In this document: piece by piece, positions 4,185-16,410 of the stretch
Numbering within the stretch: position 1 is the first letter of the stretch
Layout of the letters: every line of letters starts with the position of its first letter
Source of the DNA: Pseudomonadota bacterium
GTDB taxonomy: Bacteria > UBA10199 > 2-02-FULL-44-16 > JAAZCA01
NCBI GenBank assembly: GCA_043798915.1
Contig: JAZDOG010000078.1
Coordinates: 1-37,246, forward strand
Direction: 5' to 3'
Length of the DNA: 37,246 nucleotides
The notes under the pieces: model-generated
Seen by the model: only the letters and a program-made list of their open reading frames with translations
What the model was told of the DNA's origin: nothing
Databases searched by the model: none
Position numbers and translations under genes: made by a program

Positions 4185-5363
4185 ATGGCTCGCTCAGTTA
4201 TTGTATCCGCAGCACGCACGCCGGTGGGGAGTTTTCAGGGAAAGCTCTCGTCGTTCAAGTCCACCGAACTCGGCTCCTTTGCCATCCGCGAGGCAGTGAA
4301 GAGGTCCGGCATCGACGCAAGGGAGGTGGGCGAGGTTATCATGGGCTGCGTGTTGCCGGCCGGCCTCGGACAGTCACCCGCGCGCCAGGCTTCGCTCGGC
4401 GCCGGCATTCCAAAAGAGGTGAGCGTGCTGACCATCAACAAGGTCTGCAGCTCGGGGCTCCGCTCAGTGATGCTCGCCGACCAGCTCATCCGTTCCGGCG
4501 ACTGCCAGATCGTCGTAGCCGGCGGGATGGAGTCGATGACGAACTCGCCGTATCTGATGCCAGGCGCGCGCGGTGGCCTCCGGCTAGGCGACGCGAAGAT
4601 CGTCGACAGCATGGTCCTCGACGGTCTCTGGGACATATACACAAACCAGCACATGGGCAGCTGCGCGGAGCTCTGCGCAGAGAAATACGGCTTCACCCGC
4701 CAGATTCAGGATGCGTTCGCGGAAAGGAGCTACAAGAAGGCCCTCGCTGCGATCGAATCCGGCGCGTTCAAGGACGAGATCGTCTCGGTCCCGGTCCCGC
4801 AGAAGAAGGGCGAGCCTGTCATGTTTGACACGGACGAGGAGCCGGGGAGGGTGAAGTTCGACAAGATTCCAACGCTCAAGGCGTCCTTCAAGAAGGACGG
4901 GACGGTGACCGCCGCGAATGCGAGCTCTATCTCCGACGGGGGCGCGGCGTTCGTGGTGATGTCCGAGGAGCGCGCCAAAAAGGCCGGGCTGAAGCCCCTG
5001 GCCTCGATCGTCGCGCACGCGACATTTTCACAGGAGCCGGAGTGGTTCACGACGGCCCCGGTCGGCGCCATGAAGCGGACGCTGGAGCGCGCCGGGCTCA
5101 AGATATCCGACGTCGACCTCTTCGAAATCAACGAGGCCTTCTCGGCCGTGACGCTTGCCGCGATCAAGGAATTCTCGCTCGACGTGGGGAAGGTCAACGT
5201 GGGCGGCGGCTCGGTCGCCATCGGCCATCCGATCGGCGCATCGGGCGGGCGCATACTCACCACACTCCTCTACGCGATGAAGCACCGCGGCGCAAAGAGG
5301 GGGCTCGCGACGCTCTGCAACGGCGGCGGTGAGGCGACGGCCATGATCGTTGAGGCATGCTGA
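4185..5363 (+). CDS. Acetyl-CoA C-acetyltransferase (thiolase)
   Basis: INKVCSSG nucleophile, NEAF, GHPIGASG, CNGGG; AGGAGG SD. Confidence 0.93.
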   Translation: MARSVIVSAARTPVGSFQGKLSSFKSTELGSFAIREAVKRSGIDAREVGEVIMGCVLPAGLGQSPARQASLGAGIPKEVSVLTINKVCSSGLRSVMLADQLIRSGDCQIVVAGGMESMTNSPYLMPGARGGLRLGDAKIVDSMVLDGLWDIYTNQHMGSCAELCAEKYGFTRQIQDAFAERSYKKALAAIESGAFKDEIVSVPVPQKKGEPVMFDTDEEPGRVKFDKIPTLKASFKKDGTVTAANASSISDGGAAFVVMSEERAKKAGLKPLASIVAHATFSQEPEWFTTAPVGAMKRTLERAGLKISDVDLFEINEAFSAVTLAAIKEFSLDVGKVNVGGGSVAIGHPIGASGGRILTTLLYAMKHRGAKRGLATLCNGGGEATAMIVEAC

Positions 5364-11814: not shown

Positions 11815-12611
11815 CGGCGTCATACGAAGACAAGGTGAAAAACTTGAGGCGGCGCCTCCGTGAATTGGAGAGCGCCGTCGTTGCTTTTTCGGGCGGCGTC
11901 GATTCGTCCGTGCTGGCTGCCCTGGCGCATGAGGAGCTTGGGGCGCGGATGATAGCTGCCACTGGAGTATCGCCCGGTCTCCCTCAAGTCGACAGACTCT
12001 CCGCCCAGTCCCTTTGTCTGGAGCGGGGCATCCCTCATCGCTTCGTGGAGACCCGCGAGTTTGACGATCCAACCTTTACGGCGAATCCTGACGATCGCTG
12101 CTATCATTGCAAACGGCACCTGTACAATCGTTTCGTCTCCATGGCGGATGAGCTGGGCTTCGGATTTGTCGTCGAGGGGACGAACGCCTCGGATCTTGCC
12201 GGACACAGGCCCGGCCATCGCGCGTCGCGGGAGAACCCGCGCGTCGCCACGCCGCTCATCGAGGCTGGCTTCACCAAGGATGAGGTGCGTATGCTCGCCA
12301 GGAATCTTGGCCTCGCGGCCGCAGACAAGCCGGCTTCAGCCTGTCTCTCGTCGCGCGTGCCGGCGGGAACAAGCCTCGATCCTGTATTGCTCGCGAGGAT
12401 CGACAGGGCGGAGGAATCGCTCAGGGCTGTCGGTGCGGCGCAGGTGCGCGTGCGCCACCATGGCGATCTCGCGCGCATTGAGGTGGGCGGCCGCGACCTG
12501 GAACTCGTCCTCGAACAACGCATCGTGATTTCGGAACGCATTCGCTCGCTGGGATGGAAGTTCGTCGCGCTGGACATCGACGGATACCGCACCGGCGGCA
12601 TGAAGGAGTGA
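11811..12611 (+). CDS. larE: Nickel-pincer nucleotide sulfur transferase LarE
   Basis: AFSGGVDS PP-loop, RCYHCK, RPG, KPASACLSSR, VRVRHH; adjacent to larB. Confidence 0.9.
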   Translation: MTASYEDKVKNLRRRLRELESAVVAFSGGVDSSVLAALAHEELGARMIAATGVSPGLPQVDRLSAQSLCLERGIPHRFVETREFDDPTFTANPDDRCYHCKRHLYNRFVSMADELGFGFVVEGTNASDLAGHRPGHRASRENPRVATPLIEAGFTKDEVRMLARNLGLAAADKPASACLSSRVPAGTSLDPVLLARIDRAEESLRAVGAAQVRVRHHGDLARIEVGGRDLELVLEQRIVISERIRSLGWKFVALDIDGYRTGGMKE

Positions 12612-13381
12612 CGCCTGCCGTGGATTCCAGAAACATCAAAGAGATACTCGAGCAGGTCGTGTCCGGCAGAAAGAGCCAGGCTGAGGCGCTTGATGCCCTG
12701 AGGGACCTCCCTTTCGCCGACATGGGGGTAGCCAAGCACGATCTCCACCGCGCATTGCGCAACGGTTTCTCGGAGGTGATACTCTGCGAGGGGAAGAGGC
12801 TGGAACATCTCCTGCACATCGTCGCAGAGATGGCCGGGCGCGGGGTGAATCTCTTCGGCACGCGAGCCGAAGAATCGGCGGCAAACGTCATCGTCCAAAA
12901 ATTCCCGAAGGCCGACTATGATCCGGTAAGCCGCACATTCAAGCTGATGAATCGACCCGTCCTGCCGCTTCCGGGGAGGCTTGCGATCCTCTGCGCTGGC
13001 ACCGCGGATCTCGGTGTCGCCGAGGAGGCCAGGCGCACGGCGGAGTTCTTCGGCGTCGAGGCCACAAAACATTACGATGTCGGGGTCGCCGGCATCCACA
13101 GGCTCTTCGCCTGCGTCGATTCTCTGCGCGAGGTCGATGCGGCGATAGCGGTCGCCGGCATGGAAGGGGCGCTGCCGAGCGTCGTCGGCGGCCTGATATC
13201 CGCTCCGGTCATCGCCGTGCCCACGAGCGCCGGATACGGGGCGAACCTGGGCGGGATAGCGGCGCTGCTCGCGATGCTCAACAGTTGCTCGGAGGGCATC
13301 ACGGTCGTCAACATCGACAATGGCTTCGGAGCGGCCTGCGCCGCACTGAGGATCATGCGCACGAACGCGCGACCGAGATAA
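12608..13381 (+). CDS. larB: Nickel-pincer cofactor biosynthesis carboxylase/hydrolase LarB
   Basis: AGTAD, DVGVAGIHRL, AGMEGALPSVVGGL, PTSAGYG, NSCSEG, VNIDNGFGAA; GTG start overlapping larE stop. Confidence 0.92.
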   Translation: MTPAVDSRNIKEILEQVVSGRKSQAEALDALRDLPFADMGVAKHDLHRALRNGFSEVILCEGKRLEHLLHIVAEMAGRGVNLFGTRAEESAANVIVQKFPKADYDPVSRTFKLMNRPVLPLPGRLAILCAGTADLGVAEEARRTAEFFGVEATKHYDVGVAGIHRLFACVDSLREVDAAIAVAGMEGALPSVVGGLISAPVIAVPTSAGYGANLGGIAALLAMLNSCSEGITVVNIDNGFGAACAALRIMRTNARPR

Positions 13382-13385
13382 CATC

Positions 13386-14327
13386 ATGCGGACACCTGTA
13401 GTCTGGCTTACGCTCCTGTTTGTGATGGGCGTCCTGTGGGCCGGATCCAACTCGGTAGTGAAGATGGGGCTTGGCTCCATCGATCCGCTCGCGCTCGTCT
13501 TCTGGCGCTTTGCTGTGGCGTTCGCCGTCCTTGCAATCTGGATCGCCATCAAAAGGTATTCGTTGAGGATCGGACGCGGCGACCTCCTTCGCATCGGCGG
13601 GGCTGGGCTTCTGCTCGCCTCTTCAAACCTCCTGTGGGTGGCCGGCATCGGGATGTCCCGCGCATCGGATGCCTCGCTCCTGTACGTCTTCGAGCCGGTC
13701 TGGGGGATCCTTCTCGCCAGCATCATCCTGAAGGAGAAATTGCGCGCGACGACCATCGTTGGCCTCCTGTTCGTTCTCCTGGGGCTGGCAGTTCTCTCCG
13801 GTTTCAATGCCGGGGCGTTTGGCTTGAAGGCGAGCGGCTCTGCGGTGGGAAACCTCCTGGTCGTCGCAGGCCTCATCTGCGAAGGATTATACTCGATTGT
13901 GCTGAAGCCCTTGGCGGCTCGCGTGTCCGCACCGGTCGTCACTGCCGGCAACCTCGCGGTCGCAGCCGCGGTCACTGCGATTCCGATGGGACTTCGAGGC
14001 GGTTTTTCGGTTCCATCCGGCGCCGGCGCTCTTTTTTCGATCGCTTACCTGTCCATCATCTGCACGGTGATAGGCTACACGCTGTGGGTGGCAGTGATGA
14101 AACATGCACCGGTCGGGCTGATGCTCTTCACCGTCTTCATTCAGCCAATCGCAGGCCCGCTCATCGCTGCGGGCTTTCTCGGCGAGCATCTCGACGCGCA
14201 CCTTCTGTTAGGAGGTGCGCCGCTCATCATCGGCATGTTCATAGCGGTCGCCGGGCATCTGCGCGGCGAGCGACGCAATGCGGCGATGTCGAATGCTGTT
14301 GCAATATCGATCGCTGGGGGAGTCTGA
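13386..14327 (+). CDS. DMT/EamA-family transporter
   Basis: About ten hydrophobic helices in two repeats; LKEKL and FLGEHL motifs. Confidence 0.85.
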   Translation: MRTPVVWLTLLFVMGVLWAGSNSVVKMGLGSIDPLALVFWRFAVAFAVLAIWIAIKRYSLRIGRGDLLRIGGAGLLLASSNLLWVAGIGMSRASDASLLYVFEPVWGILLASIILKEKLRATTIVGLLFVLLGLAVLSGFNAGAFGLKASGSAVGNLLVVAGLICEGLYSIVLKPLAARVSAPVVTAGNLAVAAAVTAIPMGLRGGFSVPSGAGALFSIAYLSIICTVIGYTLWVAVMKHAPVGLMLFTVFIQPIAGPLIAAGFLGEHLDAHLLLGGAPLIIGMFIAVAGHLRGERRNAAMSNAVAISIAGGV

Positions 14328-14380
14328 AAAAATTCCGATCACTCAATTGAATATAATTATGCATAATATTTAAAAAAAGT

Positions 14381-14409
14381 TTGACTCTGCTCGAACAGTT
14401 CTTTATAAT
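14381..14409 (+). promoter_or_regulatory. Near-consensus sigma70 promoter for the Lys-rich microprotein
   Basis: TTGACT-17 nt-TATAAT with an AT-rich UP-like tract upstream. Confidence 0.8.
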
Positions 14410-14463
14410 TTAACATGAAATTGGGGAAGGATGGGAAAACAACCTTTTTCAAAGGAGGGGGAA

Positions 14464-14544
14464 ATGGTTAAGAAAAAAAAGGCAAAGAAGGCGAAGAAAA
14501 AGGTAGCGAAGAAAAAGAAGAAGGCTTCCAGGAAGTGCAGATAG
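14464..14544 (+). CDS. 26-aa Lys/Ala-rich basic microprotein (histone H1-tail-like), below the ORF-track cutoff
   Basis: MVKKKKAKKAKKKVAKKKKKASRKCR; AAAGGAGG SD, tandem TAG TAA stops, own promoter and terminator. Confidence 0.75.
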   Translation: MVKKKKAKKAKKKVAKKKKKASRKCR

Positions 14545-14573
14545 TAACAAAGAGATTAGAATTTGCTGGATCG

Positions 14574-14603
14574 AAGGAGGGCCCGAGCGGCCCTCCTTTT
14601 TTT
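14574..14603 (+). terminator. Intrinsic terminator after the microprotein gene
   Basis: AAGGAGGGCC-CGAGC-GGCCCTCCTT followed by TTTTT. Confidence 0.85.
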
Positions 14604-14617
14604 ATATACCGTTCAAG

Positions 14618-14686
14618 CAAGTGATGGGACAGGTAAGGGGTCGAGCGGCGAGCCGAAGCGAGACCCCTTACCTGTCCCATCACTTG
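14618..14686. repeat. Perfect 25-bp inverted repeat with 19-nt spacer (MITE/REP-like)
   Basis: CAAGTGATGGGACAGGTAAGGGGTC (14618-14642) is the exact reverse complement of GACCCCTTACCTGTCCCATCACTTG (14662-14686). Confidence 0.85.
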
Positions 14687-14796
14687 TGCAGTCTCCCCGC
14701 AAAGCCCGGCATGCCGACGTTTACATTTTGCCTTGTACCACCAGTGCGAATGTGTTAATCGCGCAGCAATAAATGCGACGGCGAAGGAGGTAGAGA

Positions 14797-15348
14797 GTGT
14801 CAGCATACGTTCCGAGCAAGATTTTTCTCACGAAGGGCGTCGGACGCCATCGCGAAAAGCTGCAGAGCTTCGAGATGGCCCTTCGCCATGCGAGGATCGC
14901 TCAGTTCAATCTCGTCAGGGTGTCGAGCATCTTCCCGCCGGCGTGCCGGATCATACCGCGCAACGAGGGCGTGATGAGGCTTCGGCCCGGCCAGGTTGTG
15001 CACTGCGTCCTTTCCGACTGCGCCACCAACGAGCAGCATCGCCTGATAGCATCCTCCTGCGGCCTCTCGATCCCCAAGAACAGCGAATATCATGGCTATC
15101 TCTCCGAGCACCACGCCTTCGGTCAGAACGAGAAGCAGGCCGGCGACTATGCCGAGGATCTGGCCGCCGAGATGCTCGCCACGACGCTGGGCGTGGTATT
15201 CGATGCCGATAAATCGTGGAATGATCGCAAGGGCACGTGGACGATCTCCGGAGAGATCGTGAAGACCCTCAATATCACGCAGTCAGCGCTCGGCGACCGG
15301 TACGACCAGTGGACCACGGTGGTTGCCGGTGCAATCTTCGTCCCATAA
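14797..15348 (+). CDS. pdaD: Pyruvoyl-dependent arginine decarboxylase
   Basis: SFEMAL, NLVRVSSIFPP self-cleavage site, GYLSEHH, WTTVVAG; AAGGAGG SD; agmatinase downstream. Confidence 0.88.
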   Translation: MSAYVPSKIFLTKGVGRHREKLQSFEMALRHARIAQFNLVRVSSIFPPACRIIPRNEGVMRLRPGQVVHCVLSDCATNEQHRLIASSCGLSIPKNSEYHGYLSEHHAFGQNEKQAGDYAEDLAAEMLATTLGVVFDADKSWNDRKGTWTISGEIVKTLNITQSALGDRYDQWTTVVAGAIFVP

Positions 15349-15349
15349 A

Positions 15350-16222
15350 ATGCTTCTCTCAAATTTTTTAGGTCTCTCCGAAAAATATTCCGCATACGAC
15401 AAGGCGCGTGTCGCCGTGCTGCCCGTCCCTTACGAAGCGACCGTGAGCTATGGCCGCGGCACAGCCAAGGGCCCAAGCGCGATCATCGCTGCGTCATCTC
15501 AGGTCGAGTTCTATGACGAAGAACTCGGGTGCGAGCCCTATGAGGCCGGCATTGCGACGCTTGAGCCGCTCATGGTCGCCGGCCTGGCGCCTGCCGCCAT
15601 GCGGGGAAGGGTTGTGCCAGCCGTGAAGAAAATAATCTCGGACGGCAAGCTGCCGTTTGTCCTGGGAGGCGAGCATTCGATCACTCCGGCTGTCGTCCTG
15701 GCCGTGCATGCCGTGCACGGCCATGTCACCGTGGTGCAGTTCGACGCCCATGCGGATCTTCGGCAGGAATATGAGGGCGAACCGATGAGCCATGCCTGTG
15801 CCATGGCTCGCGTGCGCGATATCTGCCCCGTGGTTCATCTTGGAATACGCAACATATCCAAAGAAGAGGCCAAATTGGCCTCGCGCGAGAAATTTCCGAT
15901 CTTCTACGCCAAAGATATGCATCGTTCCGACGACTGGATGGAGGAGGCGATCAAAGCGATCGGAACGGAGAAGGTCTACGCCACGATCGATGTCGACGCC
16001 TTCGATTCATCCGTCATGCCGGCGACCGGAACACCGGAGCCAGGCGGCCTTGGCTGGTATCAGGTTGTCGATTTTCTGCGCCTGTTGTGCAGGAGGAAGA
16101 GGGTGGTCGGATTCGACGTGGTGGAACTGGCGCCGCTCGACGGAATGCGCGCCTGCGACTTTCTCGCGGCAAAACTTGCCTACAAATGCATCGGTTATTG
16201 GCAGACGGGAATCAACTGCTAG
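15350..16222 (+). CDS. speB: Agmatinase
   Basis: GGEHS, FDAHAD, DVDAFD, TGTPEPGG ureohydrolase motifs. Confidence 0.92.
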   Translation: MLLSNFLGLSEKYSAYDKARVAVLPVPYEATVSYGRGTAKGPSAIIAASSQVEFYDEELGCEPYEAGIATLEPLMVAGLAPAAMRGRVVPAVKKIISDGKLPFVLGGEHSITPAVVLAVHAVHGHVTVVQFDAHADLRQEYEGEPMSHACAMARVRDICPVVHLGIRNISKEEAKLASREKFPIFYAKDMHRSDDWMEEAIKAIGTEKVYATIDVDAFDSSVMPATGTPEPGGLGWYQVVDFLRLLCRRKRVVGFDVVELAPLDGMRACDFLAAKLAYKCIGYWQTGINC

Positions 16223-16410
16223 TGGATGGTGTCTCCGAACCTCTTCGTCAGCGAGCTGATCGCCTCGCCGCGCTCGATAAGCCTCGTCGCTACATCCCAC
16301 TCGAAGCTCTCGACGTTGACACCGGTCTCGATCAGGAGACAGGCGAATCTCTCGCTGTCGACGTCGCCCCCGATCACTTCCAAGCACAACGCCCTCAGTG
16401 CGGGATCCAT
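16219..16410 (-). CDS. Small acidic hypothetical protein (63 aa)
   Basis: MDPALRALCLEVIGG...FGDTIH; G-rich SD-like GGGGG before ATG; stop overlaps the speB stop. Confidence 0.5.
   Translation of the reverse strand: MDPALRALCLEVIGGDVDSERFACLLIETGVNVESFEWDVATRLIERGEAISSLTKRFGDTIH

Follow-up and report, generated by a model that had tools for sequence, protein, structure and literature searches.

The closest described counterparts of the gene considered here are the chlamydial histone H1-like protein Hc2 (HctB, PF07382) and Bordetella BpH1 which, according to PMC2848022, vary in size via Lys-rich pentamers and bind nucleic acids by charge. The gene in question lies in a 37,246-nucleotide (nt) contig of a Pseudomonadota bacterium (JAZDOG010000078.1; 'the window' hereafter refers to this whole stretch of DNA), where a 26-codon open reading frame (ORF) at 14464–14547 on the + strand is predicted to encode the polylysine peptide MVKKKKAKKAKKKVAKKKKKASRKCR. 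As in Hc2 and BpH1, the products of this ORF and its counterparts in related genomes (K-ORFs) consist of short Lys-rich repeats spaced by Ala, Val, Thr or Pro, and gain and loss of repeats leads to length differences between strains or lineages. There are also clear differences: Hc2 (165–237 amino acids (aa)) and BpH1 (182–206 aa) have conserved flanks and about two basic residues per pentamer, whereas the K-ORF products span 15–145 aa (26 in the window), contain 3–6 Lys per unit of 5–7 residues, have no flanks and do not match PF07382. The nearest named Atlas cluster, in which 15% of the members carry PF07382 (HC2; score 0.91), provides a lead only. By analogy, the K-ORF product is classified as working like Hc2, BpH1 and the H1 tails but not as a member of their families, because it does not match the HC2 profile and has neither the size nor the flanks of Hc2.

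Several other basic proteins invite comparison. The C-terminal tail of linker histone H1 and the protamines resemble the K-ORF products in being disordered polycations of Lys/Ala/Val/Thr/Pro composition with a presumed condensing role; however, the globular winged-helix domain of H1/H5 has no place in a peptide that consists of 26 aa, is of low complexity throughout and has no Pfam match, and the protamines are Arg-rich, whereas the K-ORF product is Lys-rich, bacterial and encoded by a free-standing gene. In Coxiella burnetii, small basic DNA-binding proteins are proposed to supplant polyamines as stabilizers of nucleic acids in small-cell variants (PMC4766238); ScvA and Hq1 of this bacterium, likened to the K-ORF product by their description only, are very small, basic and described as DNA-binding, but are stage-specific in a developmental cycle, whereas no such cycle is known for the K-ORF lineage. 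DNA binding and nucleoid compaction are documented for the plastid protein SWIB-4, in which an H1 motif adjoins the SWIB domain (PMC4154389), and in Waddlia a SWIB protein binds along the genome (PMC6426960). Comparison of the window with related genomes indicates that the gene is real and conserved and that it has never been annotated. The most likely reading, to which we give about an even chance, is that of an autonomous, strongly signalled gene for a 26-residue polycation that would serve as a nucleic-acid counter-ion in the manner of an H1 tail.

Anatomy and conservation of the unit

All genomes compared here are metagenome-assembled. The closest public loci were initially compared using PdaD, the product of the next gene downstream, as the anchor, and in 12 of these 17 loci pdaD is immediately preceded by a Lys-rich ORF that reads in the same direction. 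The alignment of 11 full-length orthologs with the window (12 sequences; alignment A1) displays a common anatomy, with a TTGAC-17-TATAAT promoter, a GGAGG-type ribosome-binding site 5–8 nt before the ATG, the ORF and a terminator. A sequence-only model of the promoter, leader and start (R1) matches 20 of the 22 genomes of the order, including all 17 high-quality ones (the two genomes without a match have completeness values of 78% and 81%), and 36 of the 93 genomes of the phylum (families f1–f4, f7, f10–f13, f19 and one of f18). The latter number is a lower bound, given that R1 missed two further complete units, both detected with the codon pattern given below: one in family f14 with a 19-aa product and one in family f5 with a 15-aa product. 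The locus-level counts below refer to the 33 top-hit loci that were fetched from the 36 R1-matching genomes. A Lys-rich ORF of 21–145 aa follows the match in all 33, and the codon pattern KKK[VA]xKKKK yields 84 matches in 29 of the 93 genomes, compared with one for the reversed control. The repeat units, of 4–7 residues, are lineage-specific, and conserved positions are limited to the first five to six residues, M-[VAP]-K-K-[KR]-K. Conservation of the ordered unit in every locus fetched is the decisive evidence against a chance assemblage of signals, and the window appears to contain a member of a family of stand-alone microproteins, built of Lys/Val/Ala(/Arg/Thr) repeats, that spans the phylum.

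In the window, the whole unit is housed in the AT-rich gap between a gene for an EamA-family transporter (13386–14327) and pdaD (14797–15348), where the GC content drops to a minimum of 0.345 compared with about 0.6 in the flanks. The sigma-70-type promoter (14381–14409, + strand), with TTGACT at 14381–14386, a 17-nt spacer and TATAAT at 14404–14409, agrees with the consensus at 11 of 12 positions, and there are only 35 sites with at least 11 of 12 consensus positions in the entire genome (both strands, 2.34 Mb). Within alignment A1, TTGAC and TATAAT are invariant or almost so (TATACT in one sequence), and a regular expression picks up the promoter in 26 of the 33 orthologous loci. The promoter abuts an AT-rich stretch (14340–14380, + strand) that ends in AAAAAAAG, with an A-tract that is near-invariant in alignment A1, and might function as an UP element. 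The predicted 5' leader of about 47 nt (14417–14463, + strand; its start is placed by the position of the -10 box) contains a U-rich tract and the ribosome-binding site AAAGGAGGGGG (14451–14461), which is present in all 33 orthologs. The ORF starts with the ATG at 14464 and ends with tandem stops, TAG (14542–14544) and TAA (14545–14547). The intrinsic terminator (14573–14606, + strand) begins 25 nt past TAG TAA and consists of a GC-rich hairpin, with a stem of 11 pairs (7 of them G-C) and a 5-nt loop at 14573–14599, followed by a T-run.

When considered one at a time, these signals are less telling. A scan of positions 13800–15400 finds two promoter sites against 0.9 ± 0.9 in shuffled sequences and one terminator against 2.0 ± 1.6, so that the terminator alone is not above chance. 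Across the orthologs, however, a hairpin (ΔG, the predicted folding free energy, between -13.7 and -34.4) and then a T-run are present 44–70 nt past the stop in 33 of the 33 loci, with stem sequences that are unrelated between loci.

The two smallest units, those encoding 15 and 19 aa, adjoin scpAB or rarA-like genes. The 15-aa unit is located directly downstream of scpA-scpB, which encode condensin accessory proteins, on the same strand (L178, ~4626–4680, - strand; genome G022), and this is a single case.

Coding signals in the 26-codon frame

The predicted peptide of the window has 26 residues, among which there are 15 Lys (11 AAG and 4 AAA codons), 2 Arg and no acidic residue, for a net charge of +17. 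A longer reading of 37 aa, from the ATG at 14431, was rejected: it has no properly spaced ribosome-binding site, and the upstream frame of the relatives does not contain that ATG. Over the 1350 residues of the 33 orthologs, Lys accounts for 57.3%, Val for 12.6%, Ala for 10%, Arg for 8.5% and Thr for 5%, whereas Asp, Glu, Asn, Gln, Phe, Trp and Tyr are not encoded even once. A single A-to-G change suffices to convert a Lys codon to a Glu codon, yet no Glu is found in the 33 orthologs. Lys is often replaced by Arg, which is encoded by 41 CGN and 74 AGR codons; where CGN codons are used, the basic charge is retained even though the purine richness is lost. The third positions of the Val, Ala and Thr codons vary freely, with all alternatives used, and the +1 frame contains stops in 31 of the 33 ORFs.

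The runs of A in these ORFs are conspicuously short. Ribosomes begin to slide at a threshold of about 11 consecutive A's. The longest run does not exceed 8 in any of the 33 ORFs and is shorter than in synonymous shuffles of the Lys codons in 29 of them (mean 6.0 compared with 7.8; Wilcoxon p ~1e-5, a test that treats the relatives as independent, which they are not, so that this and other statistics across relatives overstate independence). This avoidance fits selection against slippery poly(A). Taken together, the codon patterns indicate that the ORF appears to be translated and that selection acts on the charge of the peptide and on smooth translation.

The same constraints bear on the possibility that the unit specifies a non-coding, purine-rich small RNA, with the ORF being incidental. 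The strong promoter and the terminator delimit some 190 nt, a length that would suit such an RNA, and a search of 14200–14900 against Rfam gives a weak CsrB-like match. That match scores 16.8 bits against a gathering score of 71, an L20-leader match is far below the threshold, and no family in this interval reaches its gathering score; the leader alignment reveals no conserved structure either (seven predicted pairs, none covarying). The frame-specific constraints, namely the lack of in-frame GAR or GAY among the 1350 codons and the use of CGN for Arg, argue against a purely non-coding RNA, as does the conserved spacing between the ribosome-binding site and the ATG, and we consider this explanation extremely improbable.

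Database searches have little to say about such proteins. Exact copies of 10 ortholog sequences, including forms of 78–91 aa, were sought among approximately 15 billion predicted proteins and none was found, although long forms might escape notice if their start was called at another position. Four K-ORF products (26, 91, 78 and 89 aa) match no Pfam or NCBIfam family, PF07382 included, at E ≤0.01, and phmmer with the 26-mer against all PDB chains, ribosome structures included, returns no match at E ≤10, low-complexity queries being poor scorers in such searches. A search with a 78-aa ortholog, which left out the 'longer' and 'shorter' length classes, found no homolog at E 1e-3 among 8000 scored candidates, a result that is uninformative for a low-complexity sequence. 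A search of sequencing runs for RNA over 12500–16300 of the window brought up none. No published description of stand-alone bacterial polylysine micro-genes was found in a literature search that covered subscription journals thinly.

Several K-ORFs end in Cys-bearing tails (..KCR, ..SCR, ..RCCR, ..KCCAKKKR), namely those of the window (14536–14541) and of L011, L017, L095 and L118, and two begin with MxCKKK; these Cys residues might permit disulfide cross-linking or metal binding.

Arginine decarboxylase genes next to the unit

Downstream of the unit in the window lie pdaD (14797–15348, + strand), which encodes a pyruvoyl-dependent arginine decarboxylase (PF01862, PvlArgDC; 194.7 bits), and a speB-like gene of the agmatinase/arginase family (15323–16222, + strand; PF00491, 219.7 bits). 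The gene pdaD is found downstream on the same strand in 24 of the 33 loci, at a distance of 96–252 nt in the 12 that were measured and about 750 nt in L118, whereas the upstream neighbor varies, with Pfam identifying either EamA or the AIR-carboxylase-like LarB. Two of the remaining loci run off contig edges (L092 and L095) and seven have no pdaD downstream. In five of these seven, all from family f19, the unit stays beside larB, and four of the five genomes carry pdaD elsewhere, on a different contig (the remaining genome is 67% complete). In G010, the unit is followed by genes for DUF4870 and DUF2752 membrane proteins, and pdaD again resides on another contig. In G048, speA, the gene for the pyridoxal phosphate-dependent biosynthetic arginine decarboxylase, which is not homologous to pdaD, stands about 210 nt past a 145-aa K-ORF and downstream of larB (L123:1920–2786; NF003763, 401.8 bits against a cut-off of 369, over the 289 residues before the contig ends). 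No pdaD was found in G048, G022 or G056.

Thus, the unit persists without pdaD beside it. The preliminary description, which proposed a stand-alone, unannotated transcription unit for a polylysine microprotein, is borne out by the conserved promoter, ORF and terminator and their retention in the loci that lack pdaD. Each of the elements that it listed (promoter, Shine-Dalgarno sequence, ORF, double stop and GC hairpin with a U-tract) was located in the sequence, its test of the conservation of the frame and Shine-Dalgarno sequence in related genomes gave a positive result, and the short Lys-rich ORFs that it suggested looking for upstream of pdaD are indeed there. Its further view of the product, as an abundant peptide that condenses nucleic acids, has the rank of a proposal, and its interpretation as a whole is supported in part.

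The recurrent neighborhood suggests that the peptide could be a partner in polyamine metabolism: it might inhibit or regulate arginine decarboxylase like an antizyme, or serve as a second polycation in a charge-homeostasis module shared with the polyamines. The constancy of pdaD under a changing upstream neighbor is compatible with such a role, as are the juxtaposition of the 145-aa K-ORF with the non-homologous speA in G048 and the notion, put forward for Coxiella in PMC4766238, that small basic proteins can supplant polyamines. On the other hand, at least eight units have no adjacent decarboxylase (the five of f19 and those of G010, G022 and G056), the separate promoter and terminator signals argue against co-transcription with the decarboxylase gene, and an exchange of pdaD for speA in situ would leave the neighbors together without any functional link, so that the speA case can be explained with no such tie. 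With respect to the antizyme-like variant, basic ribosomal proteins of Escherichia coli reportedly act as 'antizymes' of ornithine and arginine decarboxylases, although no primary paper to this effect was found. On balance, a specific partnership of this kind seems quite unlikely; the decarboxylase neighbor, and above all the speA case, leaves room for a looser tie to polyamine metabolism.

The order of promoter, short ORF, terminator and biosynthetic genes is also that of a classic attenuator, so that the ORF could conceivably be a cis-acting leader in which slow translation of poly-Lys modulates the terminator and hence read-through into pdaD-speB. This order is upstream of pdaD in 24 loci, and both polybasic nascent chains and polyamines affect translation. 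Nevertheless, the whole unit is retained in f19 without a downstream pdaD, and in G010 the two are likewise separate; pdaD has an upstream motif of its own that is kept in loci without a K-ORF; and, with a range of 21–145 codons, the distance between a stall site and the terminator cannot be constant. In addition, the stop codon lies 31 nt ahead of the stem, no conserved alternative pairing was seen in 12 spacers inspected by eye, in the minimum free energy fold or in the leader alignment (no dedicated covariation test of the 3' region was made), and slippery A-runs are avoided rather than favored. Given also the strength of the terminators, these observations jointly render a classic pdaD leader or attenuator highly unlikely.

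The motif in question, CTTGTA-N13-TGTGTTAATCGCGC (14732–14764, + strand), is probably the promoter or operator of pdaD itself. A strict regular expression, CTTGT-N10-16-TATGTTA..GCGC, detects it in 19 of 28 pdaD loci, six more loci have near variants recognizable by eye, and it is present in all three f19 pdaD loci that have no K-ORF upstream. The motif shows no obvious good sigma-70 spacing of -35 and -10 boxes and might be either an operator or a promoter of low strength. Between the K-ORF terminator and pdaD, the window also contains a perfect hairpin with a 26-bp stem (14617–14687; ΔG -58.8) that lies outside the conserved unit. There is no second full copy of this hairpin in the genome, it is missing from the corresponding spacers of the relatives (L004 has a different long insert there), and in Rfam it has only matches to microRNA families, far below the gathering scores.

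Other small basic ORFs occur in the vicinity of some of these loci. A second basic micro-ORF family of 27–33 aa, with the pattern MYKK[KR]K..KK.[HQ]RKKK.GKK...LRYRG, is represented at L120:1735–1815 (-), L122:1280–1360 (+), L125:1755–1835 (-) and L117:2120–2218 (-). In L120, L122 and L125 (f19), it is convergent with the K-ORF and less than 100 nt from its stop, whereas in L117 the basic micro-ORF is about 460 nt away; a convergent micro-ORF is found downstream of the unit in four of the five f19 genomes. The start-codon pattern of this family occurs in 6 of the 93 genomes (five of the six f19 genomes and the only one of f17). Yet another small basic ORF, of about 45 aa (..KKKxKLSKKEK..LKKxG), lies right against pdaD in two distant loci (L034:2049–2201 and L037:2850–2996).

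Chromatin-type proteins and the probable role of the peptide

The same genomes encode other proteins that could act on the chromosome. The gene at 671–847 of the window, which the preliminary description took for a core-type histone, encodes a histone-fold protein, as indicated by matches to the PDB chains 9qt0_A (E 2.1e-10), 8fvx_A and 8cmp_A (E ~8e-9); the histone matches in Pfam and NCBIfam are below threshold. Like the K-ORF of the window, this gene is closed by TAG TAA, and it comes with a TTGACA box and a terminator-like hairpin of its own.

Only one other frame in the genome starts with MVKKKKAKK, that of a 66-aa gene (contig C33, 6890–7090, + strand; L082:1891–2088 of G000) that combines a 20-residue polylysine N-terminal tail with 46 C-terminal residues resembling the SWIB/MDM2 domain. 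The match to PF02201 scores 24.9 bits with the whole protein and 25.8 with the domain alone, right at the cut-off of 25. Among 28 aligned orthologous SWIB-like domains, 27 match this family (E ≤0.01), albeit only over model positions 8–37 of 74, and a profile of these domains matches the solved chain 1v31_A (E 0.0028). In NCBIfam, the single C33 sequence matches the SWIB end of models for chlamydial topoisomerase I/SWIB fusions. This gene and its orthologs, which are present in 41 of the 93 genomes of the phylum, thus resemble SWIB-4 in joining a basic segment, of the H1 type in one case and of the K-repeat type in the other, to a SWIB-like domain, whereas the K-ORF product corresponds to the tail only. 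The tails, of 4–93 residues, consist of repeats of the K-ORF type, and within a genome the K-ORF and the SWIB tail can have rare repeat units in common (KKKKIV in G012, KKKKKVV in G014) or be jointly enriched in Arg and Thr (G009). The lengths of the two are correlated as well (Spearman 0.75, n=23, with two start codons corrected by eye).

An alternative is that the peptide is associated with the ribosome, filling a groove in ribosomal RNA (rRNA) or the space between the subunits. The polybasic microproteins eL41, bS22, bL37 and bTHX are components of ribosomes. The 26-aa form resembles these in size and charge, the expression signals of the unit are strong and rRNA is the most abundant polyanion of the cell. 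This is the alternative, an eL41/bS22-like peptide, that was put forward in the preliminary description. The length range tells against it: the K-ORF products extend from 15 to 145 aa with repeat periods of 4–7 and have no conserved positions past M-[VAP]-K-K-[KR]-K, in contrast to ribosomal microproteins of fixed length, and unlike what would be expected of a component of a fixed binding pocket. Moreover, they have no aromatic residues and are rich in Lys rather than Arg, and the phmmer search of PDB found no match, a weak point for a low-complexity query. A dedicated ribosomal peptide therefore appears unlikely.

The preferred reading, that of a nucleic-acid counter-ion, can be spelled out as follows. 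The peptide would have no fold; its charge alone would hold it to the phosphate backbone of DNA and probably to RNA or polyphosphate as well. It would thereby neutralize charge and help to compact the nucleoid, in addition to the histone-fold protein, the SWIB-like protein with its Lys-rich tail and the polyamines produced via the neighboring pdaD-speB. Gain and loss of repeats would allow lineages to change the total charge of the peptide.

Several observations weigh against this reading. Pfam, NCBIfam and PDB yield no match, and low-complexity sequence is unable to show homology. An arginine decarboxylase gene adjoins 25 of 35 units (the 33 loci and the two tiny ones), in one case speA in place of pdaD, and this adjacency might reflect a narrower role tied to polyamines. 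Because rRNA and polyphosphate would attract a free polycation no less readily than DNA does, the nucleoid is one candidate target among several. The histone is encoded in 72 of the 93 genomes of the phylum, 31 of the 36 with the unit and 41 of the 57 without it; it is more widespread than the K-ORF, and the co-occurrence is no more than phylogeny predicts, so that the link between the histone and the microprotein that had been suggested at the outset is not a specific one. The correlation between the lengths of K-ORFs and SWIB tails is based on one to three phylogenetically independent contrasts and cannot reach significance; in a weakly resolved tree of PdaD (2 of 19 inner branches starred), most of the long forms belong to a single, weakly supported clade, and the co-variation is a pattern rather than demonstrated co-evolution. 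Gene conversion between the two genes finds little support in shared stretches of nucleotides, the longest of which (with the maximum of the synonymous-shuffle control in parentheses) measure 38 nt (32) in G012, 32 (32) in G013, 20 (38) in G014 and 11 (21) in G000, so that only G012 beats the control.

A broader version, in which the product is a 'peptide polyamine', is put forward tentatively and seems rather unlikely. A ribosomally made oligolysine would then form an arm of polycation homeostasis, retained beside arginine decarboxylase (the pyruvoyl enzyme PdaD or, where this has been displaced, the pyridoxal phosphate enzyme SpeA), and would also represent a free-standing form of the SWIB lysine tail. 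In this version, the nucleoid charge of a bacterial lineage would be set jointly by polyamines, a core histone, a SWIB protein with a tail and a linker-like polycation that consists of the tail only, and would be tuned by the number of repeats.

Gene callers miss ORFs as short as this one, and annotations therefore do not show a gene whose expression signals rank among the strongest of its genome. Provided that the peptide is produced in large amounts, it would represent a major counter-ion of DNA or RNA in an uncultured, histone-bearing lineage and a minimal natural model of charge-driven condensation of nucleic acids. Its recurring place beside the genes for polyamine synthesis offers a testable link between peptide and small-molecule polycations.

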